From NCBI RefSeq assembly GCF_017876815.1, contig NZ_JAGIOS010000003.1, positions 1,170,001 through 1,202,000 on the forward strand: DNA of 32,000 nucleotides. Direction: 5' to 3'. How positions within the stretch are numbered: the first letter of the stretch is position 1; each line of letters opens with the position of its first letter. A program made the position numbers and the translations under genes. The notes beneath the pieces were generated by a model that saw only the letters and a list, made by a program, of their open reading frames with translations, did no database searches and was not told where the DNA came from. The stretch comes from Sinorhizobium meliloti. GTDB taxonomy: Bacteria; Pseudomonadota; Alphaproteobacteria; Rhizobiales; Rhizobiaceae. Of the stretch, positions 1-27,821 are shown piece by piece.

Positions 1-109
1 CGCGTCATGGCAAGACTCCGAAACAAATGTATTGAATGAGCTATGACAGCAGTGGTTCAGCCGATAAATGGAGAGAAAGGCAGCACAGTAGAAACGGAGA
101 GTTTTTAAT

Positions 110-4807: not shown

Positions 4808-4822
4808 GGGGGTGGAAAAACC

Positions 4823-6366: not shown

Positions 6367-6429
6367 TATCGATTGCTCGGGGAACAAGCGTTCCCGAACA
6401 TCGTTGGTGGCGATGAAAAGGAGATCGCC

Positions 6430-6807
6430 ATGAGCAACCTCGCACCGACCCGGCCTTCCGCACGTGTTCTGGCCGCTTTCTGCCTGCTGATCGCCCTCGC
6501 CCCCAATCCAGCATCGGCACAGAACGCGAATGAGAAAGCCGATTGCGCCGCGGCTGCCGGCAAGGCGGAGCCGGCAACGCCCCCCGACCGCGCCAGCGCT
6601 GACGGCACCGCGCCCGGCAACAGCGGGTCGACCGGCTGGACCGGAGGAACGGGCGGCGCGCATATCGGCACCAATCCCCAAGGGGGGACTGCGAGCTCGA
6701 CAACCTGGCAGCCGCCGACGGCGCGCGGCATCGATCTCGCCGCGGCAGCCGAAACTCCGCCACCGAAAACCCAGGCACCGGGAGCCCAGACACCGACCGA
6801 CTGCTGA
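6430..6807 (+). CDS. Secreted low-complexity (Pro/Gly/Thr/Ala-rich) hypothetical protein
   Basis: AAGGAGA sits 5 nt upstream of the ATG at 6430. Sec-type signal peptide MSNLAPTRPSARVLAAFCLLIALAPNPASA|QN. The mature part is low complexity and ends ...TPTDC followed by TGA. Confidence 0.55.
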   Translation: MSNLAPTRPSARVLAAFCLLIALAPNPASAQNANEKADCAAAAGKAEPATPPDRASADGTAPGNSGSTGWTGGTGGAHIGTNPQGGTASSTTWQPPTARGIDLAAAAETPPPKTQAPGAQTPTDC

Positions 6808-6911
6808 GGTTACCGCCGTGGCGATCGTTAATTCTGTTTCCAAGCGTCGAGCATGGTAGTAATTTTGTCGGCGAGCGCATTTCACGCCGCTATCAGACGG
6901 GAGCTGAGGCC

Positions 6912-7979: not shown

Positions 7980-8002
7980 GGGCCAGGCGACGTCCGAAAA
8001 CG

Positions 8003-8032
8003 AAGCCGCAGGAAGATCGATCACTGCGGCTT
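8003..8032. terminator. Hairpin between convergent genes (candidate terminator, mainly for the minus-strand gene)
   Basis: 9-bp inverted repeat AAGCCGCAG (8003..8011) / CTGCGGCTT (8024..8032) with a 12-nt loop. On the minus strand it is followed by CGUUUUCGG. It overlaps the stop codon of the 8021..8404 gene. Confidence 0.3.
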
Positions 8033-8404
8033 GATCTCCTCGATCGTTAGCCGCAATCCATCGGCGTTGAACAAATCCCCCTCCCTGATCAGGGAACGAT
8101 CCTCGTTGAGTTTGAAAACCAGCGAAGCGAGCCTCGACTTCGCCTCCCCGTCCTCCACTAGGCCTTCGCGGCCAGCCCGGTAGAAGACGGCGCCCGACCA
8201 GTCGACGCCGGCGCCGCGGAAAAGCCGCACCATGTCCGGCCAGCGCAATTCGTCCCCGACAACGTGAAGATAGGCTGAGCGCAGCAGATCGACACTGGTG
8301 TCGTTGATCCGGAGCAGCACGAACAGCATGGTGAACGAGCCGACGTCCCTGTAAATCGAGACCACCCAGTCGTCAAAATCGGTCCCATGCGTTTCGGCGG
8401 TCAC
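8021..8404 (-). CDS. Hypothetical 127-aa protein directly downstream of tRNA-Sec
   Basis: The listed ORF 8021..8503 runs into the tRNA. A GTG at 8404 is preceded by GGAGA with a 6-nt spacer, and I take that as the start. No family recognised. Confidence 0.5.
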   Translation of the reverse strand: MTAETHGTDFDDWVVSIYRDVGSFTMLFVLLRINDTSVDLLRSAYLHVVGDELRWPDMVRLFRGAGVDWSGAVFYRAGREGLVEDGEAKSRLASLVFKLNEDRSLIREGDLFNADGLRLTIEEIKPQ

Positions 8405-8418
8405 GAAGGGTCTCCTGA

Positions 8419-8514
8419 TGGCGGAAGAGAATGGGAGTCGAACCCACCCAAGACAGCCTCGCTGCCCCACCCGGATTTGAAGTCCGGACATGCCACCGGG
8501 CATGATTCTCTTCC
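8419..8514 (-). tRNA. selC: tRNA-Sec (anticodon UCA), 96 nt including CCA
   Basis: Minus-strand sequence GGAAGAGAATCATGCCCGGTGGCATGTCCGGACTTCAAATCCGGGTGGGGCAGCGAGGCTGTCTTGGGTGGGTTCGACTCCCATTCTCTTCCGCCA. It has an 8-bp acceptor stem (GGAAGAGA/TCTCTTCC) and a 6-bp D stem (CATGCC/GGCATG) with a 4-nt loop. The 6-bp anticodon stem carries the loop CTTCAAA. There is a long variable arm and a 5-bp T stem with loop TTCGACT, giving the bacterial 8/5 Sec architecture. Confidence 0.93.
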
Positions 8515-8582
8515 AGGCGTCGAATTTGTTGCCATTTCACCGGAGACAATCTTTGCAAACGCGAGCGATTGCTGCCGCTTTG

Positions 8583-8830
8583 CTACCCTTTGCCATCACT
8601 CCTGTCCACTACAGCACGACTGATCATGTCGTCAATCTGCGCTGCGGCATGGGCCTGTATCCCGGGCATCACATGCGAGTACAGGTCGAGCGTAATGCCG
8701 ATCTTCGAATGTGAAAGACGCTCACTCGCGATCTTTGGATGGACGCCGCCGGCCAGCAACTGCGTTGCATGGGTGTGGCGCAAGTCGTGGAAGCGCATCC
8801 GCGGGTGGGTCCACTGGGTCGCCACTCGAA
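8583..8830 (-). pseudogene. Tyrosine recombinase (phage-type integrase), C-terminal fragment only
   Basis: The tail of ORF 8583..9050 reads RFHDLRHTHATQLLAGGVHPKIASERLSHSKIGITLDLYSHV, which covers the HxLRH, LGH-like and catalytic Tyr region. Upstream residues of the ORF do not look integrase-like, so about three quarters of the gene is missing. Confidence 0.7.
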
Positions 8831-9179
8831 AGTGACAGCTCCAATCTTGTCTACGCTCGGCGGCTTGCCTAAGACCTTTGTCGTTGATGAGCTGGTCTAA
8901 GGTCCGGCAAGCACATGTCGGGCGTGTAATTGGAGCTGCAGCTGGTCGGCCCGCTGCAGCTCTGTTTGTTCCTACACACCCGCCGCGATGTCTCTCTGCA
9001 ATCTGAACTCTCGGCCACTCGCTTTGCGGGGCTGCCTCCGCATTTGTCACTCAACATCATCTGGCAACGGTAAGTCCGCCATCGCTCACCGCACAAAATA
9101 CCTCTTCCTATAAACAAAAGACGGAACCGGGCTCTGATCTGCGCGTTCGGAGCAAACATCATCGTGCGAGGAGGCGGAC

Positions 9180-9572
9180 ATGAAACCGGCGACAATATTG
9201 CTTGCCGATGATGAAGCGCTGCTCCTTTTGGATTACGAGGCTGCCCTTGCCGAGGCGGGGTTCGTCGTTGTGGCGGTAGCCAGCGGAGGGAAGGCGATAG
9301 AGGTTTTGAGGTCCGCAGACTCCGAAATAGCAGGGGTGGTAACCGATATTCGGTTTTTTGGACTTCCCGACGGTTGGAGCGTCGCACGTGTTGCCCGTGA
9401 GATTGATCCTGATATGCCGGTCGTCTACGTCACCGGACATGGCGCTCTCGAGTGGCCCTCAAGGGGTGTCGCGAACAGCATCTTGCTCGAAAAGCCCTTC
9501 GCTCTCGCACAACTGGTGACGGCCGTATCCCAGCTGCTCAACGCACCCCGTGCTCCTCAGTGTGGCGCCTGA
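9180..9572 (+). CDS. Stand-alone response-regulator receiver (CheY-like) domain protein
   Basis: 130 aa with strong GAGGAGG 5 nt upstream. Acidic pocket LLADDE, candidate phospho-acceptor in VVTDIRF, conserved T (VYVTGH) and K (LEKPF). No output domain and no cognate kinase in the window. Confidence 0.8.
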   Translation: MKPATILLADDEALLLLDYEAALAEAGFVVVAVASGGKAIEVLRSADSEIAGVVTDIRFFGLPDGWSVARVAREIDPDMPVVYVTGHGALEWPSRGVANSILLEKPFALAQLVTAVSQLLNAPRAPQCGA

Positions 9573-9641
9573 TCCGCAGCCCCGGAGCTAGCACAGATTA
9601 TTCCCAGTCAGTTCTGGCGCAAATGGACAATTCCTGGCTCT

Positions 9642-9854
9642 CTAGGCCGCCGCTCTGAGCATTTCGCGCAAGCTGTCCTTGTTCCTGACGCCCCTTTGAC
9701 AAAGCTCTATTAGCCTAGCTGCCAGAACGGTCGCCTCAGGGCAATCATAGGTCATTCTTCTGGCTTTGATCTCCTCGTCGAACAGGCTCTGCAGCAATTT
9801 GATATCGCTCGGAGTGAGAATCCTAGGATCGATTGCATGGAACTGAGAGGTCAT
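9642..9854 (-). CDS. Hypothetical 70-aa protein
   Basis: Internal ATG at 9854 of ORF 9642..10076, preceded by GGAGA about 8 nt upstream. The upstream part of the long ORF looks non-coding. Sequence MTSQFHAIDPRILTPSDIKLLQSLF... has weak resemblance to the 11104..11391 product. Confidence 0.45.
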   Translation of the reverse strand: MTSQFHAIDPRILTPSDIKLLQSLFDEEIKARRMTYDCPEATVLAARLIELCQRGVRNKDSLREMLRAAA

Positions 9855-10026
9855 TGGCCGATCTCCTCTCTGGGGGCGTAATTGCGGAAACTCCGCAGGG
9901 CGCCCCGGGTAAATTCGGCAGTGCAACGAGCATTGTAGACCGAAGAATGGCGATTGCGAGTCGCGAAAATTCACGGCACGGCTGATAAGCAGTGATCCGA
10001 TCAACATCTCGTGCGTTATTGGCTTC

Positions 10027-10950
10027 ATGGCCAAAGCACCTTCAAAGAAGCCATCCTCAGAGCCGTCTGATCCCATGCCGGCGCGTGTCTATCCCTGCCT
10101 TGCGACGCTCGTCGATAAGCCGCCGACCGGGCAGGACTGGGCCTACGAGGTGAAGTGGGCCGGCTACCGGCTGGCCGTGCACATCGAGCCCGGCTAGGTG
10201 AGAATTCTCACGCGCGGCGGCTACGACTGGACCGACAGGCTCCCGTCGATTGCTGACGACGCGCGACGGCTCGCCGTGCAGACGGCCATAATCGACGGAG
10301 AGGCTGTCGTGCTCGATGAAAAGCATGCTCCAGCGAGCCTTGGGCCGTCTGCCGTCTATCCTCGAAGCGGGCGCCATCGTCTGCTATGCCTTCGACCTGC
10401 TCTATCTCAACGACGCGACGTTCGCCGGCTGCCGCTGCGGGAGCGCCGGAGACTGCTGCAACCGATCATCGCCAGACAGGAAGCGGCGGTTCGGTGTTCT
10501 GAGGAAGGCGATGCGGGGGCGAAGATTTCCTCCGTGCCGCGTGCGCGCACGGCCTCGAAGGCATGATCGCCAAGCATGTCGAGAAGGCCCATCGTTCCGG
10601 CCGGGGCGAGTGGTGGCGAAAGATCGCCTGCAAAAGTCGAAATAGCTTTGTGGTGATCGGCTTCGAGCCGTCGACTGTGCAGGCCATCTCGGTCGGCTTG
10701 TGCTCGCCGCCGGAAGGGCGGAGCTCTGGTTTATGTCGGCGGCTGATTACCGGCTGGTCGAACCAACTGTCGCGCGAGCTGCGTAACCTGCTCGAAGGAA
10801 TGGTGACGAAAACGCCAGCGTTGGCCCTGAGGCGGATAGGCGCCGTCTTCGTGGAGCCGGTGCTCGTCGCAAAAGTCGAGTATCGGGCCTGGACCGATGA
10901 CGGAAATTGCAAGCATGCGTCCTTTAAGGGGAGAAGGCCGCGAGAGGATG
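10027..10950 (+). pseudogene. ATP-dependent DNA ligase (LigD/Lig-type adenylation + OB domains), disrupted
   Basis: Recognisable ligase segments are spread over three frames. They read MAKAPSKK...WAYEVKWAGYRLAVHIEPG, then an in-frame TAG at 10195..10197, then VRILTRGGYDWTDRLPSIADDARRLAVQTAIIDGEAVVLDE. These are followed by IVCYAFDLLYLN (+1 frame), LPLRERRRLLQPII (frame 0), and EDFLRAACAHGLEGMIAKHVEKAHRSGRGEWWRKI, FVVIGFEP and LVAKVEYRAWTDDGNCKHASFKG (+2 frame). The adenylation motif KxDG reads KWAG. Confidence 0.8.
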
Positions 10951-11103
10951 GCCCCCTCTTTTCGGGATGGGCTAGATCTTGTGACAACCTAGAGGGCGTT
11001 GCCAACCGTAAGCCGAAGGCGCAAGGTCCAACCTTCAGTAGAAATGTCACGGGCGCTGCTGCTTAAGGGCTAAAAGCCTTGGCCCCCTTTGAAGGAGCAC
11101 GCA

Positions 11104-11391
11104 ATGTCTTCCAACGTATCCATCATGTCACCTTCGGACCTGCAATTCATCAGGTCAGTTTTGGGCGAAGCCGGCTATAACGCCAAACTTCTCGTTGACG
11201 ATCCTCGATCTTTTGAAACGGCCGAATTGCTCGTAACTAAGTTGTTCCTGGCGGGTGAAGACTCCCGACCGGGCCTGGCGGCGAAGCTAGAGTGTCAGTT
11301 GGGCAAGGCTGGCAGGTACAGACGGCCTCCCGGGTCGTCGCTGGCGCGGTATGCAATCCAAGGTCTTCCAAGCGAGCTACAATTTTCATAA
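11104..11391 (+). CDS. Hypothetical 95-aa protein
   Basis: GAAGGAG lies 6 nt upstream of the ATG at 11104. Sequence MSSNVSIMSPSDLQFIRSVLGEAG... No family recognised. Confidence 0.45.
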   Translation: MSSNVSIMSPSDLQFIRSVLGEAGYNAKLLVDDPRSFETAELLVTKLFLAGEDSRPGLAAKLECQLGKAGRYRRPPGSSLARYAIQGLPSELQFS

Positions 11392-11562
11392 GCACGACGA
11401 TGCCCGGAACGATCGTAGCCCGGTTTGCAAGTTGTAGAACAGCCCAAGAATGCGCAACTCGCGGTTTCCAATTCACGAAGCGTTCCGCGCTTTATCGTGT
11501 CGTTGTTAGGACCGATTGGAAACCACATTTCGCTCCACCCCTTCGTAGAACCGCCGCACCGC

Positions 11563-11853
11563 TCATTCCTTTCCATCCAACTCAATCTTCAGCGTTCTGA
11601 TGATGTCGGCCGCGTCCAGCATGACGTCTCTGGTCTCCGCGGGAGATAGGTCACGGGCGCGTGACGAGGCCAACTGGAGATCAATCACAACGTCTCGGGC
11701 GCGGTGGCTGGCAGCAATGCTAGCCTGCCTGCGCATATCACGGATCGTGTCAACCGAACGATCCAGCAGCCGGCTGATCTCATAGGGCGTAAGTCTTTCG
11801 ACCTCGTTCGCGGCTCTGATCAGTTCGGCAATGAATGCGGTCGTGAGGCTCAT
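11563..11853 (-). CDS. Hypothetical 96-aa protein
   Basis: The ATG at 11853 (MSLTTAFIAELIRAANEVERL...) overlaps the TGA of the upstream ORF in an ATGA arrangement, suggesting translational coupling. The protein looks helical and charged. Confidence 0.45.
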   Translation of the reverse strand: MSLTTAFIAELIRAANEVERLTPYEISRLLDRSVDTIRDMRRQASIAASHRARDVVIDLQLASSRARDLSPAETRDVMLDAADIIRTLKIELDGKE

Positions 11854-12170
11854 GGTCTTCTGACGCCGGCCCCATGCGGAGCGTTTCGAGCGGCTGTTTT
11901 CTCCGCCATCTTCGCTCGGAATTTCTCTCCCAAGCGCGGTACAGCATCCACTCCGAGATTCATTACTCGGTCCAGGTCCTCCCGATACCAGAATTTCCGC
12001 GTGGCGCTTTCCAATACGCATGGCTCCGGATAGGCGGTTCCTACGGGCTCGAGGAAGTCCTCGACGTGCTTTTCGCTGACGCAGCCCGCCGCCATTTCTG
12101 CCGTCATCCGCGGCGGCCAACTACTCGGCGGTACAATGGCTGCGCGATGCTTTCTATTCGAGATAGCCAT
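11850..12170 (-). CDS. Hypothetical protein, possibly excisionase/AlpA-like DNA-binding protein
   Basis: MAISNRKHRAAIVPPSSWPPRMTAEMAAGCVSEKHVEDFLEPVGTAYPEPCVLESATRKFWYREDLDRVMN resembles the short HTH proteins (...R.W.REDLD...) found at the ends of integrative elements. The start is uncertain (ORF track 11850..12332) and the family assignment is from memory only. Confidence 0.35.
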   Translation of the reverse strand: MAISNRKHRAAIVPPSSWPPRMTAEMAAGCVSEKHVEDFLEPVGTAYPEPCVLESATRKFWYREDLDRVMNLGVDAVPRLGEKFRAKMAEKTAARNAPHGAGVRRP

Positions 12171-12374
12171 CAAAGCACCGGGGACTTCGGTCGATGGGCG
12201 CTTAAGTTGCGCATTGCCATATGCCCCGCCTTCCTTAGATTTCATCTGGGCGGCCGTGCCGGCCACGTGCGAGCTCGCCTTGATGAACCCTCGCTCCTTC
12301 CAATTTCTTCTGGCAGGGACGCAACCTCGCACATGCCTTTACGGATCAGACCTTCTAAGTATTGAAAGGGATGT

Positions 12375-14375
12375 TCAAGAGCCGGCGCGATAGAATTTGA
12401 AGTCCGGACGCCCCACCGGGGACGAGTCTCTTCCCTCATCTGCCTCAGGAACGTGCCCTTCGTAAAGATCGAGCCTGTGCGGGTTAACCCGGCGCACGTC
12501 GCCATGCCGGAGCGTCACTCCCTGACGATCGAAGAATTCCAGGATCTCGATCGCCACCTTTCTACCGTTGTTGACACGGTCGCGGAAGAGACCTGCGGAA
12601 AATTCACCCCGCTCGGCATTGGCCGCGACTTGCCTGATGATTGCGACCATTTCCGCTGTCGTCTGACGGGTGAAGAAATGGTCATGCCGAATCTGGTCGA
12701 CGCGGCCGAGCCGTGCACAAAGTTTGAGGATGCGGCGTATCTCTCGCTCGTCTACGCCCAGCGTTTCGGCGAAATCGCGGACTCGAGGCGGACGGAATCT
12801 CTCCTCGCCTTCCAGATGCGGAAGGATTCGTGCATAGAGCTCCTCCTCCTTCTCGCTCAACCGGACCTCGTGACCCGGCAATCGGACGAAGGCGCCTTCG
12901 AGCACCAGGCGCCCGCCCGTCTGTTCGGTCCTAAGCGCAACCAGAAAGGCCGGCGGAGGAAGTCGTGGCGTGACCTGCAGCCGAAGGCGCTCGCGACCGA
13001 TCCCCTGCAGATCGGGGTTCTCCACATGAAAGGCGCTCAATACGCGCTGGACCTCGTCGGAAAATGCGACTCGCTGGCGCTTCGACAGCGCATGGCGCAC
13101 CGCCAGGCCCTCGATGAGTTCGGCCGAGGCAAACATGAGCGCGTTCTGCAGTTCCGGCTCGGACAGGGCCCGGTCGCGTGCAAAGACGTCAAGATCGACA
13201 AGAAATGGCGGAACATCCAGCAATGCCGCAAGCGCTTCGCCAGCATGGGACAGAGATGCGGCTTTCAAGAAGCTCAGCCGCTGGGGAGAGCGCCGCTTGC
13301 GCAGGGGCGCCCGCAGATCCAGGAGCCGTCCTCCACCGATCGTGCGCCGGGCTGAAACGTCGCGCAGTATGAACCGGTCGCCGACAGCAGCCGCGATCGG
13401 ACGGTCGAGCACGAGTTGAACCCGCCGCCGCTCGCCCGGCAACAGCGGTCCCTCGAGCGGCACGATACGAACACCGGTCTCGGCGCTCGCGTGGTGAAAG
13501 CGGGCCGAAAACCATTCCCCGATCGGCTTCGTCTCACTTTCAAGCACAGAAAGATCCGCGTCGAGCCTGTCGCTCGGCGCGTGCAGATGGGGATCGACCA
13601 CCATGTCGCCTCGGGTGATTGCGTTCTTCGAGATCCCCTCGCCCGCAAGGTTGAGTGCACAGCGTTGCCCGGCAAAGCCGCGCTCGGCCCTCTGGTTCTG
13701 AGCATGTATGGAACGTACGCGCGCAGCGCGACCCGCTGGCGAGACCGTCACCTGGTCGCCCACGCCGACGGACCCTGAAAGCACGGTTCCAGTGACCACG
13801 GTTCCGGCGCCCGAGAGCGTGAAGCTTCGATCGACGGCGAGCCGGAAACGGCCACCGGCAGTCGATGCCACGGTCGCACGCTCGGCAGCCGCCAGGCGTG
13901 CCTTCAACAATTCAATCCCCTGCCCCGCCGCCGCAGAGACGGGAAGTATCTCCGCATCGCGGAGGCTCGTCGACGAAAGCACCGCTCCTATTTCATCCGT
14001 CAGGCTCTCGAGGCGGTCAGGATCGGCAAGGTCTGCTTTTGTGATCGCGACCAGTCCGCGGCTGACGCCGAGCAGATCGAGGATCGCGAGATGTTCGAGC
14101 GTCTGGGGTTTGATGCCATCGTCTGCCGCAACGACCAGCATGGCATAGTCGATGCCGCCCGCGCCGGCGAGCATGGTATGAATGAAGCGCTCGTGACCGG
14201 GGACGTCGACAAATCCGGTAACTGCGTCCTTTGCAAACCGGGCATAGGCAAAGCCGAGATCGATGGTGATGCCGCGCGCCTTTTCTTCCTTGAGGCGATC
14301 GGTGTCGACACCGGTCAGTGCCTTGACGAGCGTCGTCTTGCCATGATCGATATGCCCGGCCGTGCCGACGATCAT
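12375..14375 (-). CDS. selB: Selenocysteine-specific translation elongation factor
   Basis: GTPase motifs [17 protein letters not shown] and TKADL, EF-Tu-like domains II/III, and a long C-terminal winged-helix extension (666 aa). The last ~20 codons are read from the tRNA-Sec relic and island junction. Confidence 0.92.
12395..12434 (-). repeat. Relic 5' half of a second tRNA-Sec (att-like partial copy)
   Basis: The minus strand GGAAGAGACTCGTCCCCGGTGGGGCGTCCGGACTTCAAAT aligns without gaps to nt 1-40 of the intact selC (34/40 identical). Identity ends immediately after the anticodon loop. The following sequence (TCTATCGC) cannot form the 3' anticodon stem. Confidence 0.8.
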
Positions 14376-15166
14376 GGCGCCCGCCTTGAAAGCGGCTCTT
14401 GCGCCCGACGTTCCGCTTCCTGGATCTCCGCCGGCGAAAGGCTGTCACGAACCGGTCCCATGAAGGGCTTTGCCAGGGTGCTGCCGCCTTCCGTCGCCCG
14501 GATCAGCCAGACCAAGGCAGTCACACCATTGCGTATCGTGCCCGCCCCCATATGGCAGGCCGCTCCCAGCATGGCCTGGGCGTCTGCGTCGCCCCTCTCT
14601 GCAGCCTTCAGCCACCAGTAGACGGCCTTTTGCGCATCGCGTTCGACACCGAGTGCGTTGTGGTGGAGCATGCCGAGCCGCGTCATCGAGGACGCGATGC
14701 CGGCCTCGGCGGCACATTCCGCCCAGCGTCGCGCCTCGAGCGGGTCGGCCGTCATGATCTCGCCTTCCAGCAGCAGCCAGCTCAACATGTCCTGGGCCGG
14801 CGCGTCGCCCTTTTCAGCGGCGCGTCGATAATATTCGGCTGCGATGCCGTAGTCGGCATCGGTGCCGGCGAGCCCTTGCATGTGCAGGGCGGCATAGTTG
14901 CGTTGCCCGACGGGATCCCCGGCTTCGGCCGCCAGGCGCAGCCATTTGCACGCCAGTTCTCGATTCTCCGGCACCCCGAGCCCTTCTGCGAAGCAGGCGC
15001 CGATATTGTTCTGCGCCCGCGCGACGCCGGCACGCGCCAGAGGCTCCCAGATGCGCAGCGCCGACCCGTAGTCGCCGGCTTGGGCGCGTGCCAGGGCCTC
15101 GGCCATCGGATCGGCCACAGGCGCCGTCTGGGGCTTATTGCCTCGAAGGCGTTCAAGCCACCGCAT
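14372..15166 (-). CDS. Sel1-like repeat (SLR/TPR-like) protein, cytoplasmic, embedded between selA and selB
   Basis: About six SLR units ([47 protein letters not shown]..., [24 protein letters not shown]..., [24 protein letters not shown]..., [25 protein letters not shown]...). No signal peptide. The ATG at 15166 overlaps the selA 3' end by 14 nt, and its stop overlaps the selB ATG (ATGA at 14372..14375). The longer track ORF (to 15325) would overlap selA extensively. Confidence 0.8.
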
Positions 15167-16553
15167 CGCCGCTACCCTCGGACAGGGTTTTGAGGAATTC
15201 CGCCTCATCGGACAGACAGCGCAGGTCCAGAACCAGCGCACCATCCCGCAGGCGCCCCAGGATCGGGCGGGACAGAGACCGGAACAGAGCTGCGAGCGCT
15301 TCGAGTGCGCTCCCGCTCGACCCAACGATCCTCAGGCCGGCGCTCGGGATCGTGTCTACGGGAAGCGCCCCGGAGCCTATCTGGCTCGAACAGCTGCAGA
15401 CCTCGACAGCGTAACCGCTCGGCGCCAGCATCGCGCCGACCTGCGGCGCGAGCCGCTCCGCCTGTGCCCGCACTTCCGCTTGCACGCGGGACAGCATGAA
15501 AAGTGTCGGCAGGCGCGAAGCCAGCCGATCCGGATCGCGATAGAGCTTCAAGGTAGCAGCCGTCGCCGCGATACGGATCTTGTCGACACGCAGCGCCCGC
15601 TTCAGCGGATTGCGGTTGATCTCGGCGATCAGGTCCCTGCGCCCGACGATGAAACCCGCCTGCGGACCGCCCAGCAGCTTGTCGCCGGAAAAGGTGACCA
15701 GATCGGCTCCTTCGGCGACTGCCTCTCGCACCGTCGGCTCCCTGCCGAGACCATAACGCGACAGGTCGACCAGGCTGCCCGAACCGAGATCGTTGAGAAG
15801 CACCACACCTCTTTCATGGGCGATTGCCGCAAGCTCGGCACCCGGGACCTCCGCGGTGAAGCCCTCGATCCTGTAATTCGACGTATGGACCTTGAGGATC
15901 AAAGCCGTCTCAGGCCCGATCGCCTTGACGTAGTCCTTCGCGTGGGTGCGGTTGGTCGTGCCCACTTCGACCAGATCGACGCCGGCGCGCTCCATGATGT
16001 CCGGCATGCGGAAAGCGCCGCCGATCTCGATCAATTCACCCCGCGAAACGATCGCCTGACGCCCGGCACCGACCGAGTTGAGAGCGATCAGGACAGCCGC
16101 GGCATTGTTGTTGACGACGGTGGCATCCTCCGCTCCCGTCAGCTCGCACAGCAGTTCCCGCAAATGGCTGTCGCGTTCGCCGCGCCCACCGGAATCGAGA
16201 TCGAATTCAAGCGCGGCCGCTTCGCGCATTGCATCGACGGCGGCATCGACCGCCTCCTGCGCAAGCAGCGCCCGGCCGAGATTGGTATGAAGCACCGTCC
16301 CCGTCAGATTGAACAGCGGGCGAAGGTTCGAGCGGCTGCGGTCATCGAGCCGGCTCAGCAGAGCGGCAACAATGCCATCCTTGCCTGGCAGCGCCCCACC
16401 GCTCCGCACGGCAAGGCGGACTTCGCCCAGTACTTTGCGCAGTTCGTCCGTCACCACGGCGCGGCCATGCTGCTCCACAAGCGGCGACACGGCCGCCGCG
16501 TTCAGCATCTGGTCGACGGAGGGCAAGGCACGAAGATCGACAGGTCCCGACAT
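15153..16553 (-). CDS. selA: L-seryl-tRNA(Sec) selenium transferase
   Basis: 466 aa with the PLP-lysine context [13 protein letters not shown]. The N-terminal tRNA-binding region is LPSVDQMLN. The start lies 4 nt after the fdhE stop. Confidence 0.92.
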
Positions 16554-16557
16554 TGGA

Positions 16558-17478
16558 TCAATAGCCCATCAGGAACGGGTCAAAGCCCGCCCGCTTGTAT
16601 TCCGTGTCCTTCATCAACAGGTCGAGCCCGAGGCTCGCAACATCATCGGCGACGACGTCGAGCGAAGGGTTCTTGTTCTGGTAGAGGATCTTCATCCAGC
16701 TGTTGCAGGTGTCGCAGACTTCCGCCTTGACCGTCGCCTCTTCGTCTCCCGTCTCGACGGCCTGGTAGCCGATGCCCTTCGTGGAACCGCAGGCGAGACA
16801 TTTGACCCGAACCTCATTCCACATCGTGGCGCAGCAGGAACATGAGGCATAGCGCGCGCCCTCGGCACCATGAAAGCCGATGACCATGGATGCGACCGGC
16901 CTGCCGCCGCAGGCGGGACAGACCCCTACCCGGATCGGCACGAGCCTGCTGCCGTCGAGACCGGCAGCGAGGCGCGCCGCCTGGATTTGCATTGCGGCAG
17001 CAACGTAAAGGTGGTGAGCGAGGCTCTCGACGGGCAGGTCGTCAGCCATGACGTTGCCGATCATCCAGGTCAGCATTTCCTCATCCGCCGTCCGGACCTG
17101 TGCAAGCGCTTCTGCGGCGGCAGCCGGCTTCTCCAGGGCTTCAGCCTTCTCAAAAAATTGCTGCAACACTTCGCGGCAATCCGGCGACCCCCCCATCGCT
17201 GCGCGATCGATGGGGGGCATGGCATTCGCACGCGCACGCTCAACCCGATCGGCCGGGACCGGCTCCGGCGGCGGCAATGCGGATACGAGCTCGCTCTGGA
17301 TTCGCGTGATCCCCGCCAGGAAATTGAGATAGGGAGCGAGGTGGCTGCCTTGGGCGAGTGCCTCGAAGCGACTGGCGCGATCGTTGAAGAGGCGTGCCAA
17401 ATTCGGCTTCAGGACAAACGGTGCCTTGGGAACGCCGCCGATCACCGATGGATCGGGCTGTACAGGGGATACGGACAT
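16558..17478 (-). CDS. fdhE: Formate dehydrogenase accessory protein FdhE
   Basis: Starts at the ATG at 17478 ([10 protein letters not shown]...) with GAGG upstream. Four Cys pairs are present: CPACGG, CSCC, CLACGS, CDTC. The 516-aa track ORF is an artefactual 5' extension over fdoI. Confidence 0.88.
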
Positions 17479-17516
17479 TTCACCTCGCGGGCCGACCGGC
17501 CACAGCTCGTTTCCGG

Positions 17517-18203
17517 TTATTCTGCAGGATCGATCCGGCCGCGTCCAGCCAGTTCCTTGAGCCACTTGCGATGGTGCCGCCACGCCCAGCCACCGGTGAC
17601 CGAGCCCTTCGTCATCGCGCGGAACGTCCCGCGGGTCCAGAAGGCCGCATAGACATGAACGATGAAGACGCAGATGATCAGCACCGCCGCCACGGCATGG
17701 GCGAGCACCGCAAAGCGCTTCGTCTCGATCGACGTATAGCTGTAGAAGTACTGATCCCAGATGATGACGCCGGTTATGATCAACGCGACGATCAGCAAGG
17801 CCATTGCCCAGAAGATCACCTTCTGGCCGGCATTGTACTTGCCCATTTCCGGCAAGCGGTCCTCGTGCCCGCCGATCACGTCGCGAATGCCCGTGAACCA
17901 GCCCATGTCCGCTCTGGTGAAGAGGTTGGCCTTCCAGAGCTGGAAGAAGAAAATGTAGAAACTGAAGAAAAGCACCACGCCGATCCACGGGTGCAGCATG
18001 CGCGTGTTCTGCCCCCCACCGAACAGGCCGGTCAGGAAAAACAGGGACGGGTGGAACATTGCAAGGCCGGAAAGCGCCAGCAGGATCAGGCTGGAGGCCG
18101 TGATCCAATGATTAACGCGCTTGCCCGGCCCATAGCGGTCGACTGTGACCGGCGGTCCGCGATGGATGGCATCTTCCGGTTCAAGATCGCTGGCCTTTGT
18201 CAT
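17517..18203 (-). CDS. fdoI: Formate dehydrogenase-N/O type, cytochrome b556 gamma subunit
   Basis: Four predicted TM helices with conserved His residues ([23 protein letters not shown]). The ATG at 18203 is preceded by GGGAGGA and overlaps the fdoH 3' end by 23 nt. Confidence 0.85.
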
Positions 18204-19173
18204 CAGGCGTCCTCCCTGCGGCTCCGGCGCTATCGACGAGCCTTTCCGCACTCTCTTCGTCTTCCGGCTGCACACGATTGGCCCGGCCGAAGACGCCGTG
18301 GAGAATTGCCCCGGCGGCCACGAGACCCATTGCGGCGAGACCTGTGTATTTGGTCACACCCTTCCATGCCTGGACCACGGCGGAAATCTTCGGATCGTCG
18401 GGCAGATCGGAGTAGATGTGCGGCTTGTCGTTGTGATGCAGCACATACATCACATGCGTGCCGCCTACGCCCGGCGGATCGTAAAGGCCTGCATTCGTAT
18501 AACCGCGGGATTTGAGATCGGCGATGCGGTGTTCCGCATGCTTCTTCATATCCTCCTTCGTGCCGAACACGATCGCGTGGGTCGGACAGGCCTTGGCACA
18601 GGCCGGTCCCTGGCCGACGGCGACCCGATCGGAACAGAGGGTGCATTTGTAGGCGCGGTGATCGACTTTCGAGATGCGCGGAATGTTGAAGGGACAGCCC
18701 TTTATGCAATAGCCGCAGCCAATGCAGTTCTCGTGAACGAAATCCACGATGCCGTTCGAATACTGGACGATTGCGCCCGGCGCCGGGCAGGCTTTCAGGC
18801 ACCCCGGATCGGCGCAGTGCATGCAGCCGTCCTTGCGGATGAGCCATTCGAGATTGTCGGTCTCGGGATTGACCCACTCGGTAAAGCGCATGAGCGTGAA
18901 CATGTCCTCGGTGAGGTCATGGGGGTTGGTATAGTAGCCGACGTTTTCGCCGATCCCCGGATGCGTATCGTTCCACTCGACGCACGCAGACTGGCAGGCC
19001 TTGCAGCCGATGCACTTTGAGACGTCGATCAGCTTGGCGACGGGCGTGAGCTGCCGCTCGGGCGGCGGCAGCTCGGTGGTTGCCGAGCGGCGTACGAGAT
19101 CCCGCTCGGTAAGGTTGCTTTCCATCGGCTGGACCGGCGGATTGCTGACGGCGGTGCGAGGACTGTCCATCAT
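18181..19173 (-). CDS. fdoH: Formate dehydrogenase-N/O type, iron-sulfur beta subunit
   Basis: Four ferredoxin-type clusters: [58 protein letters not shown]. There is a C-terminal membrane anchor. The ATG overlaps the fdoG TGA (ATGA). Confidence 0.92.
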
Positions 19174-22100
19174 ACTCTAGCCTCCTCGGGCGCCGTCGAT
19201 GATTCGATATTGACCAGGAATGCTTTGTATTCCGGCGTTTCGATATTGGCGTCACCGACGAAAGGCGCGAGCGAGTTGGGGCCGAGGCCCTTTTTCGCCG
19301 AGCCGGTGAACCCCCAGTGAAGCGGAATGCCCACCACATGGACCGGCTTGCCGTCGCACATCAGCGGCCGGATGCGCTTGGTCACCACCGCCTTCGCCTT
19401 GACCGAACCACGCTTCGACCACACCCGGACCCAGCCGCCGTTTTCGATATTCTTCTCCTCTGCCAGTTCCTCGGAGATCTCGACGAAGAATTCCGGCTGA
19501 AGCGCGGAATTCACGCGGTTATGCTTGGTCCAGTAGTGGAAGTGTTCCGTCAGCCGGTAGGAAGTAGCCGCGTAAGGGAACTCGTCCGACAGCCCCATCT
19601 GCGCCACGTCCGTCTGAAAGACGCGGCTGACCGGGTTGCCCCGCATCTTCGGATTGAAGACGTTGGCGACGGGGGATTCGAAAGGCTCCATATGGGCCGG
19701 GAACGGCCCGTCCCGCATCAAACCGCGTGAAAACAGGCGTGCAGTCCCCTCCTGGTTCATGATGAACGGGCCGATTTCGTCCGGCTTTGCCGTAGGAGCA
19801 ATATCGGGCACATCGTAGCCCGCCCACTTCGTGCCATCCCACTCGAGCAGCTTACGTGAGGGATCCCACGGCTTGCCCTGCAAATCGGCCGAAGCACGAT
19901 TGTAGAGCGTGCGGCGATTAAGCGGCCAGGCGAATGACCAGCCGAGATAAGCGCCAGTGTCGTCCGGATCGTGGTTGTCGCGGCGGGCCATATTGTTGCC
20001 CTGCTCGTTGAAGTTGCCGGAATAGATCCAGCAACCGCACATGGTCGAACCGTCGTCCCTGAGTTGCGAGAAGTTCAGGATCTGCTTGCCGGCCGCGACC
20101 TGCACCTTCATCGGGTTGGCAGGATCCATGAGGTCCGTCAGTGCCCGACCGTTGATTTCCTTCGCCAGCTCCTCCGGCGTAGGTTCGTTCGGATCGGCAT
20201 AGTCCCATGACAAGTTCAGGATCGGATCGGGGAACGCGCCACCCTCGTTGCGATACATCTCCTTCATCCTGAGGAATATCTGGGCGACGATGTAAGTGTC
20301 GTGCTTTGCTTCGCCGGGGGGTGTTCCACCTGCCCAGTGCCACTGCAACCATCGGCCCGAGTTTGTCAGCGAGCCCTCTTCCTCCGCAAAGCAGGTCGTG
20401 GGCAGCTGGAACACCTCGGTCTGGATGGATGCGGTATCGACAGGGTTGAAGTCGCCATGGTTTTCCCAGAACCGTGCGGTCTCTGTGTCGAGCGGGTCCA
20501 TCGTGACGAGCCACTTCAGGTTCGACAGCGCCTTGGTGTTCTTGTCCCGGTTCGGGAAGGCAAGAAGTGGGTTGAAGCCCTGGCAGATGTAGCCATTGAC
20601 CTTGCCGGCATACATCAGCTCGAACACGCGAAGCACATCATAGGCCGGCACGTCGAGCTTGGAGAGGTAATTGAAGGCCCAGTCGTTGTCGATCCGGGCG
20701 GCATCCCCCCACATGGCCTTCTGGAAGGAGACCATGAACTTCCTGTAGTTCTGCCAGTAACTTGTCTGCCCTGGACGCAATGGTTTGAACTGGCGTGTCG
20801 ACATATAGGTCGTGAAATCCACGTCCTTTTCCGTCGGCATCGTCAGATACCCCGTGAGCAGATGCGACATTAGACCGAGGTCAGTCAGTCCCTGGATGTT
20901 GGAGTGGCCGCGAAGCGCGTTCATGCCGCCGCCGCGCACGCCGATATTGCCGAGGATGAGCTGCAGCATGGCCATGGCGCGGATGTTTTGCGAACCGCTG
21001 GAATGCTGGGTCCAGCCGAGCGCATACATCGACGTCATCGTCTTTGTCGGAGACGAGCATTCCGAGATCATCTCGGCAACCTTGAGGAACTTGTCCTTGG
21101 GCGTGCCGCAGATCCGTTCCACCATTTCCGGCGTATAGGGGGCGAGGTGCGCCTTCAGCAGATTCCAGACACAACGCGGGTGCTGGAGCGCCGGGTCAGT
21201 CACGACGAAGCCGTCGTCGCCGAGGACATAGTCCCACGTCGACTTGTCATAGTCGCGCTTTTCCGCGTCGTAGCCCGTGAAGAGGCCGTCCTGGTAGCCG
21301 AAGCCGTCCTTGACGAGATAGGAGGCGTTGGTGAACGCCTTCATATAGTCCCACTGCACCTTGTCGTTGTCGATGCAATACTTCATCACCCCGTTGAGGA
21401 AGGCGATGTCGGTTCCCTGACGGATGGGAGCGTAATAGTCGGATACGGACGCGGTGCGGGTATAGCGCGGATCGACCACGATCAGCTTCGCGCCCCGCGT
21501 GGCCTTCGCCTCGGTCACCCATTTGAAGCCGCAGGGATGCGCTTCGGCCGCATTGCCGCCCATGACGACTACGAGGTCGGTATTTTTGATGTCGGTCCAG
21601 GAGTTGGTCATCGCTCCACGGCCAAATGTTGGGCCCAAACTGGACACCGTAGGGCCGTGTCAGACGCGCGCCTGATTATCGAAACCGACTATTCCCAGAG
21701 CCTTGGCGAATTTGAAGGTCGCCCAAGCCGTTTCATTGGTGGTCGCCGACGCGGCGAGCATGCCGACCGTCGTCCAGCGATTGACCGGAACGCCTGCGGC
21801 ATTCGCCGCGACGAAATTGGCGTCGCGGTCATCCTTCATCAACCGTGCGATGCGGTCGAAAGCATCCTCCCAGGAGATACGCTCGAACTTATCCGAGCCC
21901 GGCTTGCGGTGCATCGGATACTGGAGACGGGTCGGGGACTTCACGAAGTCCTTGAGCGCCGCCCCCTTGGGACAGAGCGTACCGCGGTTGGTCGGATGAT
22001 CCGCATCGCCTTCGATGTGAATGATGTCGGCAGCCTCACCCTTGCGGAGGTCGCCCTTCGAATAGATGATGACGCCACAGGCGACGGAACAGTAGGGACA

Positions 22101-22259
22101 GGTGTTGCGCGTTTCGGTGGTCGTCGTCAGCTTGTGAGGCCGGACATGCGCGACGACCGCCGCCTCAGCCTCACCAAACCCCATCGCACCGAGTGACGTT
22201 GCCGCAGCCCCTGCTCCAGCCAGCTTCAAAAAGCTGCGCCGTGAGAGGTCTACATTCAT
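19170..22259 (-). CDS. fdoG: Formate dehydrogenase-N/O type, molybdopterin alpha subunit, selenocysteine-containing (in-frame UGA at 21660..21662)
   Basis: Track ORFs 21660..22274 and 19170..21647 share one frame and are joined by a single TGA. The junction reads [30 protein letters not shown], the conserved FdnG/FdoG active-site context. Tat leader [20 protein letters not shown]; the ATG at 22259 has GGAGG 8 nt upstream. The N-terminal 4Fe-4S motif is CPYCSVACG. Confidence 0.93.
21617..21659 (-). promoter_or_regulatory. Candidate SECIS stem-loop immediately 3' of the fdoG UGA
   Basis: The mRNA reads UGA-CACGGCCCUACGGUGUCCAGUUUGGGCCCAACAUUUGGCCGUG. The outer 7-bp stem is CACGGCC/GGCCGUG. An alternative inner hairpin pairs GGCCC/GGGCC around a small apical stem, ACGG-UGU-CC(A)GU. 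This was folded by eye only. Confidence 0.5.
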
Positions 22260-22417
22260 GGGAACAGCCTCCATCTCGTGTCAGCAACAATGGAGTCTAT
22301 GCCTCGACACCAGCAAGTCAAGGTGGAGTGATATCGTCAAAGAAAGCCGCCGCAGCGAGCGGAGGCGGGCATCCAGAGAGAGGACGCGCCTGTGTTGCGC
22401 GTCAGTTGCCGAATAAT

Positions 22418-24256: not shown

Positions 24257-25462
24257 GTGACGGAAACGATCACAGGGATTCTTTCGATGACGCGACACCT
24301 AAGCAGCCTCGCTTTCATGGAGAATTTTTCCAGTAAGCTCGAAATGGCACTGAACAACTTGAGCATGGCGCAGTTCCCCCCGAACGCGCGTCGCACAATG
24401 CGCAAGTTCACCTCTACCGAAGTTGCCACCCTGCTGGGCGTAACCGAGGCCTATATCCGCCAGGTTGCCGCCAAGGAACAGGGCCCTGAGCCCGAAATCG
24501 CCAACGGCCGGCGCTTCTACACGCTCGAGCAGGTTCTTGAACTACGTATGGCTCTTGCGGCAAACGGCCGGAAGAAATGGATGAATCCCCGCCGGACAGG
24601 CGATGAGCAATGCCAGATCGTTGCGGTCACCAACTTCAAGGGCGGCTCCAGCAAGACCTCTACCACAATCCATCTCGGTCACTATCTGGCACTCAAGGGC
24701 TATCGCGTGCTGGCGGTCGATCTCGACCCCCAAGCATCTCTCACCGCGCTCCATGGTAGCCTGCCGGAATTCGATTACCGTGGCGGTGATACACTTTTCT
24801 CAGCCATTCGTTTCGACGATCCCGTCCCGACGAAATCCATCATCCACAAGACCCACATCGTTGGTTTCGACGTCATCTGTGCCGGCCTCGAACTGACCGA
24901 GTTCGAGACGGCCGTCGCACTCGAGATGCGGCGGTCAGCAGGAACCGGTTTCTTGCTTCGCGTTTCTCAAGCTCTGGAGCAGGTCGCCGATGACTACGAC
25001 TTCGTCCTTATGGACTCGGCTCCGTCGCTGAACTTCCTGACACTTTCGTCGCTGACCGCCGCGACTGGGGTCATCATCCCGGTTCCGGCACATATGCTGG
25101 ATGTGGACTCGACCGCAAAGTTTTTGGAGCTTGCCGGGTCGTACATGCAGATCCTGAATGAGGTGGGGACCGCCGCTCAATGGGACTTCGCCAAGTTCCT
25201 GATCACAAAGTTCGAGCCGAACGATCATCCGCAAGCGAATATGTCCGCGCTGATGAGACAGGTGTTCGGCGAGGATCTGCTCCTCAACTCCGTCATCAAG
25301 TCGACCGCGGTGGCCGATGCTCTGACGTGGAAGCAGAGCCTTTACGAGGTTCAGAGGTCCCGATTTTCGGCGCCGAAAACCTACGACCGCGCCATCGAGT
25401 CGATCAATGCTGCCAATGCTGAACTCGAGGGCCTCTTCTGGAAGGCATGGGGGAGAGAATGA
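24257..25462 (+). CDS. repA: Plasmid partitioning ATPase RepA (ParA family)
   Basis: Deviant Walker A KGGSSKTSTT, VLAVDLDPQASLT, and an N-terminal HTH-like segment. The start is uncertain (GTG at 24257 or ATG at 24287). The stop overlaps the repB ATG. Confidence 0.9.
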   Translation: MTETITGILSMTRHLSSLAFMENFSSKLEMALNNLSMAQFPPNARRTMRKFTSTEVATLLGVTEAYIRQVAAKEQGPEPEIANGRRFYTLEQVLELRMALAANGRKKWMNPRRTGDEQCQIVAVTNFKGGSSKTSTTIHLGHYLALKGYRVLAVDLDPQASLTALHGSLPEFDYRGGDTLFSAIRFDDPVPTKSIIHKTHIVGFDVICAGLELTEFETAVALEMRRSAGTGFLLRVSQALEQVADDYDFVLMDSAPSLNFLTLSSLTAATGVIIPVPAHMLDVDSTAKFLELAGSYMQILNEVGTAAQWDFAKFLITKFEPNDHPQANMSALMRQVFGEDLLLNSVIKSTAVADALTWKQSLYEVQRSRFSAPKTYDRAIESINAANAELEGLFWKAWGRE

Positions 25463-26460
25463 GCCGCAAGGATTCCAAGGGCCTTTTTGCCAATGTCCTG
25501 GGACAGCTGGAAAATTCTGCAGAGAAGGGCGGGATGCAGCGGTCGACATCGCCACATCTTCTCAAAGTTGCAGCCGGCGTCCGTCAGATGCAGGAACGCA
25601 GCGAACTTGCCGAACGCCTTCTCAAGGATGGTGGCCAGATCGTCGAGATCGATCCAGACGAGATCATGGAATCGGCCATCCGGGATCGCTTTGATTCCGG
25701 CTACAGCGAAGCCGGTATTGCGGATTTGCTCGAGTCGATGCGCGAGCATGGACAGAGTACTCCTGGCTTGGTCCGCCCGGTTCGAGGGGCCGCAAGGCCG
25801 TTTCAGATCGTATTTGGCCGGCGCCGGCTTGCCGCTGCCAAACTCCTCGGCATCAAGTTCAAGGCAATCGCCCGGGAACTTAGCGACGAAGATGCGATCG
25901 TTCTCCAAGGGGAAGAGAACAGCAACCGCAAGGACCTGTCCTTCATCGAACGATGCCTTTTTGCGCAATCGCAGGAGGCTGCCGGCTATCGCCGCGACGT
26001 GATCTGCAAGTCCCTGAGCACCGGCAGGTCGCATATCTCCGAAATGATCCGGATAGCGGCAGCATTGCCGCGCGAGATCCTGATGCAGATTGGTCCGGCT
26101 CCTGAAATCGGACGGCGCAGGTGGATCGAGTTCGAAGTGCGCTGGGCGGCTCACCGGGAGCCCGCGAAGGTGGCGCAGTTGGTTCTGGAGCAAGACCAGA
26201 TTCAAGCCTCTTCCAGCGAGCTACGCTTCGCTGCGGTTTTTGAAGCGCTTACCAAGGCGGATGTAAAGGCTGCAGCGTCTTCCACAACCGATCTGATCTC
26301 TCATGGCCTCGTGCTTGGCCAGATCCAACACGGCAAGTCGGCTGCGAAGCTGACATTCAACAAGTCTGTGCCTTCAGGCTTTGTCGATTTCATTGCAGGT
26401 CAGATCGAAAGCCTGCACGACCAGTTCATGCAAAAGCAGAATTCGAAACAAGGAGACTAA
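25459..26460 (+). CDS. repB: Plasmid partitioning protein RepB (ParB family)
   Basis: ParB-box region HGQSTPGLVRPV...FQIVFGRRRLAAAKLLG, with an HTH further on. The ATG at 25459 overlaps the repA TGA (ATGA) and follows GGGAGAG. The track alternative is the ATG at 25447. Confidence 0.88.
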   Translation: MSRKDSKGLFANVLGQLENSAEKGGMQRSTSPHLLKVAAGVRQMQERSELAERLLKDGGQIVEIDPDEIMESAIRDRFDSGYSEAGIADLLESMREHGQSTPGLVRPVRGAARPFQIVFGRRRLAAAKLLGIKFKAIARELSDEDAIVLQGEENSNRKDLSFIERCLFAQSQEAAGYRRDVICKSLSTGRSHISEMIRIAAALPREILMQIGPAPEIGRRRWIEFEVRWAAHREPAKVAQLVLEQDQIQASSSELRFAAVFEALTKADVKAAASSTTDLISHGLVLGQIQHGKSAAKLTFNKSVPSGFVDFIAGQIESLHDQFMQKQNSKQGD

Positions 26461-26465
26461 CCCGC

Positions 26466-26503
26466 AAAAGAAAAAGGCCCCCAACGAACAAGCCGTGGAA
26501 GCC
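26466..26503 (-). terminator. Rho-independent terminator of the candidate ctRNA
   Basis: Minus-strand RNA GGCUUCCACGGCUUGUUCGUUGGGGGCC forms 7 bp (including 2 G-U) plus 3 bp with one bulged U and a 7-nt loop. It is followed by UUUUUCUUUU. There is no U-tract on the plus strand. Confidence 0.65.
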
Positions 26504-26520
26504 TTCCTCAGATTTGTAGC
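26466..26520 (-). ncRNA. Candidate repABC counter-transcribed RNA (ctRNA / inc-alpha) in the repB-repC intergenic region
   Basis: Minus-strand promoter-like TTGACT (26551..26556), 17-nt spacer, GATTCT (26528..26533). About 55 nt downstream is a strand-specific intrinsic terminator. Position, size and orientation match what is known for repABC operons. Confidence 0.6.
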
Positions 26521-26615
26521 AAGATCGAGAATCGCATTTCCACGAATCACAGTCAAGAGTCCTTGGCACCGTTTTTGGTGAGCTGCTTTCTTTTGCCTAA
26601 TCGAAGGTGAAGGAA

Positions 26616-27821
26616 ATGGAAAGTGGAAGTGTGACGACGCCCTTTGGGCGGCGGTCGATGACGCTTGCCTTGTTGGCAGGCCAGTTCATCTCCCGCGACA
26701 TCGAACCTGGAAAGTCGGTCGACAAGTGGAAACTGTTTCGCTCGCTTTGTGCGGCCAAACGCCGGCTCGGCATCAGCGATCGGACGCTGGCCGTTCTGAA
26801 CGCGCTGTTGAGCTTCTATCCGGAGAACACGCTAAGCGGAGAGACCAGTCTGGTCGTCTTTCCCTCGAACGTTCAGCTGTCACTGAGAGCTCATGGGATG
26901 GCCGAGGCTACGCTCAGAAGGCATCTGGCCGCCCTCGTCGATGCAGGCCTGGTCGCTCGCAAGGACAGTCCGAACGGCAAGCGCTATGCACGCAAGACTC
27001 GCGATGGAGCGATCGGCACAGCATTCGGCTTTTCGCTCGCACCGCTTTTGGCCCGCTCCGGCGAAATAGAGCGACTCGCGGCCGAAGCCGAGGCTGATCG
27101 GATCGAGCTGCAGCGGCTACGCGAGCGACTGACGCTCTGCCGCAGAGACATCGCCAAGTTGATAGACGTGGTGCTCGAAGAACTGCCCGGCGACTGGACG
27201 TCTCTGCAGGAAGATTTCCGAAGCCTCGTCCAGGCTATACCGAGGACGCCCGATATCGCTGATCTCACCGCTTTGGTAGAGGCGTTCGAAACGCTGCGCG
27301 AACAGGTGGCTAACCAATTGCAAACGCGCATAAAACTCCAAGAGATGAGCGGCAATCCCGATCAAACTGAGCGGCACAAACAGGAATCAAAACCCGAATC
27401 TATTATTGAACTTGAACGTTGCCCTCGGAATGAGCGGTCAGACGGCCAGGCCGGTGAACCGGCTCACGAGGCAAAAAGGGCCTTTCCGCTGGGAATGGTA
27501 CTGAAAGCCTGCCCGGAAATCATGAACTACGGTCCTGACGGTGCGGTGAGAAGTTGGCGCGACCTTATGATCGCTGCGGTTACGGTACGATCTATGCTTG
27601 GCGTTTACCCCTCGGCCTATCAGGAGGCCTGCGAGGTCATGGGACCAGAAAACGCCGGGGTCGCCGTTGCCTGCATCCTGGAGAGGGCAGGGCATATCAA
27701 CTCTGCTGGCGGGTATCTGCGCGATCTGACCGGCAAAGCGCGGCAAGGGAAATTCTCGCTCGGCCCGATGCTGATGGCGTTGCTCAGGGCGAATGGCTTC
27801 GACAGGCGGGGGGTGTTGTGA
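26616..27821 (+). CDS. repC: Replication initiator RepC
   Basis: RepC signature region RTLAVLNALLSFYPE...VVFPSNVQLSLRAHGMAEATLRRHLAALVDAGLVARKDSPNGKRYA. The ATG at 26616 follows AAGGTGAAGGA. The track start is the GTG at 26607. Confidence 0.9.
   Translation: MESGSVTTPFGRRSMTLALLAGQFISRDIEPGKSVDKWKLFRSLCAAKRRLGISDRTLAVLNALLSFYPENTLSGETSLVVFPSNVQLSLRAHGMAEATLRRHLAALVDAGLVARKDSPNGKRYARKTRDGAIGTAFGFSLAPLLARSGEIERLAAEAEADRIELQRLRERLTLCRRDIAKLIDVVLEELPGDWTSLQEDFRSLVQAIPRTPDIADLTALVEAFETLREQVANQLQTRIKLQEMSGNPDQTERHKQESKPESIIELERCPRNERSDGQAGEPAHEAKRAFPLGMVLKACPEIMNYGPDGAVRSWRDLMIAAVTVRSMLGVYPSAYQEACEVMGPENAGVAVACILERAGHINSAGGYLRDLTGKARQGKFSLGPMLMALLRANGFDRRGVL
27305..27420. other. Candidate oriV (A+T-rich segment inside repC)
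   Basis: This is locally the most AT-rich stretch of repC (taaccaattgcaaacgcgcataaaactccaagag...caggaatcaaaacccgaatctattattgaacttgaacgtt). In studied repABC replicons the origin lies within repC in such a region. Confidence 0.35.

Follow-up and report, generated by a model that had tools for sequence, protein, structure and literature searches.

Does a gene that seems to be cut in two by an in-frame stop codon encode one protein, and if it does, which RNA structure would allow the codon to be read through? This is the question raised by fdoG, a formate dehydrogenase gene of Sinorhizobium meliloti, in which a single TGA interrupts the frame. We analysed a stretch of 32,000 nucleotides around it (contig NZ_JAGIOS010000003.1, positions 1,170,001 to 1,202,000; this whole stretch is the window, and positions are counted from its first letter). 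An earlier look at the bare sequence, which we call the original prediction, had proposed that the TGA encodes selenocysteine (Sec) and that a hairpin behind it serves as a selenocysteine insertion sequence (SECIS). From the comparisons described below, we consider it very nearly certain that the TGA is the selenocysteine codon of fdoG on the megaplasmid pSymA, with a SECIS element directly 3' of it. The feature is already known: it is curated in Rfam, it is rightly annotated in GenBank and the gene cluster has been published. We base this status on PMC8124441, PMC4053727, the GenBank annotation and Rfam. Coordinates of all features are collected in Table 1.

Reading frame and identity of fdoG

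The minus strand reads GCG CGC GTC TGA CAC GGC CCT ACG GTG, or A-R-V-stop-H-G-P-T-V, with the TGA at 21662..21660. When the frame from 22274 to 19170 was translated, it held exactly one internal stop, followed by 825 open codons up to the terminal stop. The mechanically made list of open reading frames (ORFs) has a same-frame pair at this place (21660..22274 and 19170..21647). Translation and list together bear out the observation that two ORFs in one frame are parted by nothing more than the TGA at 21660..21662. The ATG at 22259 is the likely start, because a GGAGG lies 8 nt 5' of it and the N-terminus of the product aligns with MDVSRRQFFK of E. coli FdnG. Counted from this ATG, the TGA is codon 200, in agreement with the earlier estimate of about residue 200, and the complete protein has 1029 amino acids (aa).

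For the protein queries we entered the TGA codon as Cys. The product scores 1399 bits against NCBIfam TIGR01553 (formate dehydrogenase-N alpha, cutoff 814), where residues 5-1019 span positions 2-1008 of the 1009 in the model, and 1395 bits against 1KQF chain A, the crystal structure of E. coli FdnG, over residues 4-1020. In the second alignment the TGA codon lies opposite X, the selenocysteine, of DNQARVXHGPTV, so the original prediction was right to recognize the ARV-U-HGPTV junction of FdnG/FdoG. The N-terminus carries a twin-arginine (Tat) signal, SRRSFLK. By homology, the enzyme is a molybdopterin formate dehydrogenase (FDH) of the FDH-N/FDH-O type, located in the periplasm and bound to the membrane, and fdoG encodes its catalytic subunit.

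The 4-kb segment 19000..23000 is 100% identical to the S. meliloti megaplasmid pSymA (SM11, RU11/001, Rm41 and many others). GenBank record CP140936.1 has a single coding sequence (CDS), "fdnG, formate dehydrogenase-N subunit alpha", that crosses the TGA and runs from the ATG equivalent to 22259 to the stop at 19170. The warning that an automated caller would split fdoG is true for a naive ORF finder, but GenBank has one CDS. What is at stake is annotation only, in that fdoG should be treated as one 1029-aa selenoprotein and not as two ORFs, and the current NCBI annotation agrees.

One could still take the TGA for a genuine stop, the result of a nonsense mutation or the mark of a pseudogene, in which case fdoG on pSymA would be divided or non-functional and the hairpin would have no bearing on it. 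The way in which a naive ORF finder divides the gene fits this explanation. The 825 open codons downstream, with full-length homology, and the position of the TGA opposite the Sec of the E. coli FdnG structure are evidence against it, and we return to it once the hairpin has been described.

The hairpin and its conservation among orthologues

The Rfam covariance model SECIS_3 (RF01989) matches the mRNA behind the UGA with 81.6 bits, where the gathering score is 63 (E = 4.5e-18, whole window). The stem starts at the nucleotide next to the UGA, within a frame that is otherwise open. The SECIS_3 structure is also the minimum free energy (MFE) fold (-22.1 kcal/mol) and consists of a 7-bp lower helix, an internal loop and an apical minihelix. 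Pair probabilities in the lower stem, which encloses 29 nt, are >=0.99. The minihelix begins 11 nt past the UGA, U21646 bulges from it, and its 3-nt loop (21640..21638) opens with G21640 and U21639. Its loop starts 19 nt past the A of the UGA (columns 7-25 in the numbering introduced below), which satisfies the rule that the apical loop of a bacterial SECIS lies 16-37 nt from the UGA (PMC10778597).

The original prediction had named the search for conserved, covarying structure in orthologues as a check. We scanned one genome per species for orthologues. The 80 loci obtained belong to Alpha-, Beta- and Gammaproteobacteria, and their protein identity is 69-92%. The TGA stands at the homologous codon in 80/80. 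The pairing results that follow refer to an ungapped alignment of 81 sequences (69 of them distinct) and 65 nt (-3 to +59), called A1, in which column i is window position 21666 - i. The Rfam/MFE structure is 92.6% paired on A1, with 6 pairs changed on both sides. None of 500 column shuffles matched it, and slid registers reached at most 49% pairing. Of 20 loci tested with SECIS_3, 19 passed the gathering score.

The part of the hairpin that is both conserved and covarying is the apical minihelix (21648..21631), which was absent from the earlier description. In the apical helix 99.6% of cells are paired, and compensatory changes occur at 3 pairs, 21-33, 22-32 and 24-30 (9, 22 and 29 of 69 sequences). 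Pair 21-33 is found as GC, AU, CG or GU, pair 24-30 as CG, AU or GC, and pair 22-32 as GC or UG. Columns 21, 24, 30 and 33 are third-codon positions (Val, Ser/Ala, Leu and Gly/Ala). Pairs 21-33 and 24-30 thus covary synonymously, and selection acting at the protein level cannot account for it. The bulged U20 (21646) and the loop nucleotides G26 (21640) and U27 (21639) are invariant in 81/81 sequences, as is the 11-nt spacer, and G18 and U27 are invariant despite sitting at degenerate codon positions. RNAalifold, run on A1 without a prior, predicted exactly the apical minihelix and nothing else. The check thus bears out the SECIS hairpin that had been proposed 3' of the UGA, as does the SECIS_3 score.

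A genuine stop is hard to reconcile with these data. A TGA at the identical codon in all 80 orthologues, which come from three proteobacterial classes, and synonymous covariation inside the hairpin, are not what one expects of a broken gene, and a complete set of sel genes lies adjacent (see below). In its favor there is also the fact that the energy of the hairpin alone is not significant. Taken with the frame and the homology described above, we give this explanation practically no chance.

The original prediction had centered on the 7-bp stem CACGGCC/GGCCGUG with 29 nt enclosed. This stem is present in both the MFE fold and the Rfam model, but it is the lower helix only and not the conserved core. 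Might the stem itself nevertheless be the element needed for recoding, with the apical part secondary? In S. meliloti its 7 bp, rich in G+C, pair without a mismatch in the Rfam register, it forms with the high pair probability given above, and it is included in the SECIS_3 consensus. Its conservation speaks otherwise: pair 8-48 is broken in 27/69 distinct sequences, with A8-U48 turned into A-C in 26/69, we did not find a convincing compensatory change in the lower helix among the 69 distinct sequences, and RNAalifold left the lower stem out of the consensus. In E. coli fdhF, moreover, the upper minihelix, 11 nt from the UGA, is reportedly enough for SelB binding and Sec insertion, as Liu et al. 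are said to have found in 1998. We regard a primary role for the lower stem as very improbable.

As an alternative, the original prediction had GGCCC pair with GGGCC around a small stem-loop in which an A is bulged and the loop is UGU. The S. meliloti sequence allows this alternative fold, with all 9 of its canonical pairs satisfied. The fold has an energy of -10.9 kcal/mol (MFE fold, -22.1 kcal/mol), and its pair probabilities in the ensemble are ~0. Among the 69 distinct sequences, 51 break its pair 12-32, 30 its pair 14-30 and 29 its pair 18-24. We see no covariation in it: only one cell has a change on both sides, and 477/500 shuffles do as well. It would also pair the invariant G26 and U27 and put U20 in a loop instead of a bulge, a mismatch to the E. 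coli-type SelB motif. Covariation and energy led us to reject this fold as the SECIS, and the chance that it is the functional structure seems to us negligible.

Several observations weigh against the SECIS interpretation that we prefer, and they should be set beside the evidence for it. The energy of the single-sequence fold is ordinary for its composition (z = -0.94), and 32/200 dinucleotide shuffles fold as well. The z-score is uninformative in this G+C-rich coding region, and because folding energy alone is not significant, the case for a SECIS rests on the covariance model and the orthologue comparison. The lower helix is mismatched in many orthologues and is 87% paired overall. Synonymous-site entropy over codons +1..+15 is not significantly below that of the flanks (Mann-Whitney p = 0.24). 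Paired third positions covary and are not frozen; the frozen sites are individual ones only (G18, U27). Finally, we found no experimental Sec insertion in S. meliloti FdoG in the literature covered by our search, which did not extend to the original publications of Barnett (2001) and of Pickering & Oresnik (2008), and PMC1794560 does not mention Sinorhizobium.

Some side observations concern the variability of the lower helix. The sole locus of the 20 below the SECIS_3 gathering score belongs to a Rhodoblastus sp. metagenome-assembled genome (L073, 1618..1682). It keeps the TGA and the minihelix and has a divergent lower-stem sequence, CACUCGCC...GGCAGAGG. Columns 12 and 45 (window 21654 and 21621), both third positions of Gly codons, read C..C in 44 sequences, A..U in 9 and U..A in 3. 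The last two combinations agree with a lower helix that has moved by one nucleotide (14-43, 13-44, 12-45, 11-46) and not with the Rfam register. In the protein, residues +6 and +9 after the Sec (window 21645..21643 and 21636..21634) are Ser...Gly in 22 sequences and Ala...Ala in 46, with one exception (68/69), and the first and second positions of codons +6 and +9 form the SECIS pair 22-32. It is conceivable, although we think it unlikely, that the lower helix has two registers across species and that the minihelix forces residues +6 and +9 to covary, the RNA thereby dictating protein sequence near the active site. If that were true, a variable lower helix could tune the efficiency of UGA recoding, or selenium-dependent expression, species by species.

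Likeness to known elements and proposed mechanism

As judged from its sequence, the fdoG element is an ordinary member of the family that contains the SECIS of E. coli FDH-N and FDH-O. The E. coli fdnG/fdoG elements (RF01989) share with it the host gene family, the codon context QARV-U-HGPT, the 11-nt spacer, the presence of a lower helix and the plan of the minihelix, namely GG, one bulged U, 5 bp of stem, a 3-nt loop with GU as its first two letters, and CC. The minihelix stem itself differs, being GUCCA/UGGGC (Ser-Ser-Leu-Gly) in S. meliloti and AGCAA/UUGCU (Ala-Ser-Leu-Ala) in E. coli, and the lower stem, a perfect 7 bp in S. meliloti, is interrupted in E. coli (GGA..GGU, CGC). The E. coli copy among our loci (L082, called fdnG by PGAP, although it could be either paralogue) reads GG-U-AGCAA[GUC]UUGCU-CC at 11-nt spacing and scores 84.3 bits with SECIS_3. 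A distant DNA search gave matches in all 5426 complete E. coli genomes, at a median of 2 places per genome, which are presumably fdnG and fdoG.

We also compared the element with that of E. coli fdhF. Membership in Rfam SECIS_2 (RF01988), the printed consensus of which we take to be the fdhF element, was rejected, since the score is 20.1 bits where 70 is the gathering score. The two elements are alike in having a hairpin directly 3' of the UGA, in a minihelix of the form GG-U-stem-loop(G,U)-stem-CC 11 nt on, and in the use of SelB, which for fdoG is a prediction. The fdhF element differs in its 4-nt loop (GGUC), in its lower helix and in its host enzyme, the cytoplasmic FDH-H. On fdhF, SelB recognizes a bulged U in the upper stem and a G-U in the apical loop, and U20, G26 and U27 provide all of these in fdoG.

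The mechanism that we propose follows the E. coli paradigm, from which we infer that SelB binds, that Sec is in fact inserted and that the enzyme is active. During translation of the mRNA, the hairpin 3' of UGA-200 would present its 18-nt apical minihelix, and the C-terminal winged-helix domains of SelB would bind it through the bulged U and the G-U of the loop. SelB-GTP carrying Sec-tRNA(Sec) would then be held at the A site as the ribosome meets UGA-200, and the codon, for which release factor 2 competes, would be read as selenocysteine. The tRNA would come from selC and be converted by SelA, with selenophosphate supplied by SelD. The 7-bp lower stem would lengthen the hairpin in S. meliloti without being part of the conserved core. 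In the finished enzyme, Sec200 is expected to be the active-site ligand to the molybdenum of the bis-molybdopterin guanine dinucleotide (bis-MGD) cofactor, as in 1KQF.

That pSymA carries fdoGHI (FDH-O) together with a selABCD cluster, and that this FDH-O has a catalytic Sec, was described in PMC8124441, and the genes from SMa0002 (fdoG) through SMa0028 (selD) are listed in PMC4053727. The published pSymA fdoGHI-fdhE-selAB...selCD cluster is the same locus, with 100% DNA identity and the SMa0002-SMa0028 gene order, and we found no difference from it. The Sec/SECIS feature of fdoG does not make any open question testable.

The surrounding genes

The genes for FdoH, FdoI and FdhE lie directly downstream of fdoG (Table 1), and all components to make and insert selenocysteine (selA, selB, selC and selD) lie within 16 kb of the UGA, in window 5314..16553. 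The SelB encoded here has the SECIS-binding winged-helix domains (Pfam SelB-wing_2, SelB_WH_2nd_bact and SelB-wing_3). The enzyme, its SECIS and selA, selB, selC and selD share a single stretch of the plasmid, which makes this a textbook case of a self-contained selenoprotein island.

Table 1. Position, strand and basis of assignment of the fdoG features and neighbouring genes in the window.
Feature	Position	Strand	Basis
fdoG/fdnG, formate dehydrogenase alpha subunit, 1029 aa	19170..22259	-	translation; TIGR01553; PDB 1KQF chain A; CP140936.1
UGA, predicted selenocysteine codon (codon 200)	21660..21662	-	aligned to X (Sec) of 1KQF; TGA in 80/80 orthologous loci
bacterial SECIS, full Rfam SECIS_3 (RF01989) match, 59 nt	21607..21665	-	model positions 1-59 of 59
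apical SECIS minihelix GG-U-GUCCA[GUU]UGGGC-CC, 18 nt	21631..21648	-	comparative pairing; RNAalifold
lower stem, 5' arm CACGGCC	21653..21659	-	Rfam model; MFE fold; partly conserved among orthologues
lower stem, 3' arm GGCCGUG	21617..21623	-	Rfam model; MFE fold; partly conserved among orthologues
fdoH/fdxH, formate dehydrogenase beta (Fe-S) subunit	18181..19173	-	TIGR01582, 533 bits; annotation
fdoI, formate dehydrogenase gamma (cytochrome b556) subunit	17517..18203	-	TIGR01583, 176.5 bits vs cutoff 115.85; annotation
fdhE, formate dehydrogenase accessory protein, ATG at 17478	16558..17478	-	TIGR01562, 513 bits
selA	15153..16553	-	TIGR00474, 594 bits; annotation
Sel1/tetratricopeptide (TPR)-repeat gene	14372..15166	-	
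selB, Sec-specific elongation factor	12375..14375	-	TIGR00475, 429 bits
selC, tRNA-Sec, anticodon UCA	8419..8514	-	ARAGORN; Rfam RF01852, 79.7 bits
selD, selenide, water dikinase, start approximate	5314..6366	+	NF002098, 498 bits; TIGR00476, 420 bits

The first 40 nt of the tRNA-Sec gene (8419..8514) are repeated with 85% identity at 12395..12434 on the minus strand, inside the 3' end of selB. This repeat matches the remnant tRNA-Sec that has been described as nested in selB on pSymA (Mukai 2021, PMC8124441). Between selB and selC/selD, the region 8583..12365 holds only short annotated pieces (a tyrosine recombinase, two of ATP-dependent DNA ligase, a carboligase and hypotheticals). This content is consistent with the insertion that is reported to have separated selAB from selCD (PMC8124441).

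When window 1..19000 was compared with CP140936.1 (strain ml21 pSymA), the coordinate offset stepped from 5 to 3 to 1, which indicates a few small between-strain insertions or deletions outside fdoG. A complete repABC replication/partition module lies at 24257..27821, and fdoG is therefore about 2 kb from the replicon module of pSymA. Between repB and repC there are Rfam hits to the ctRNA_p42d antisense RNA and the S-element, at 26464..26508 on the minus strand and 26551..26618 on the plus strand.

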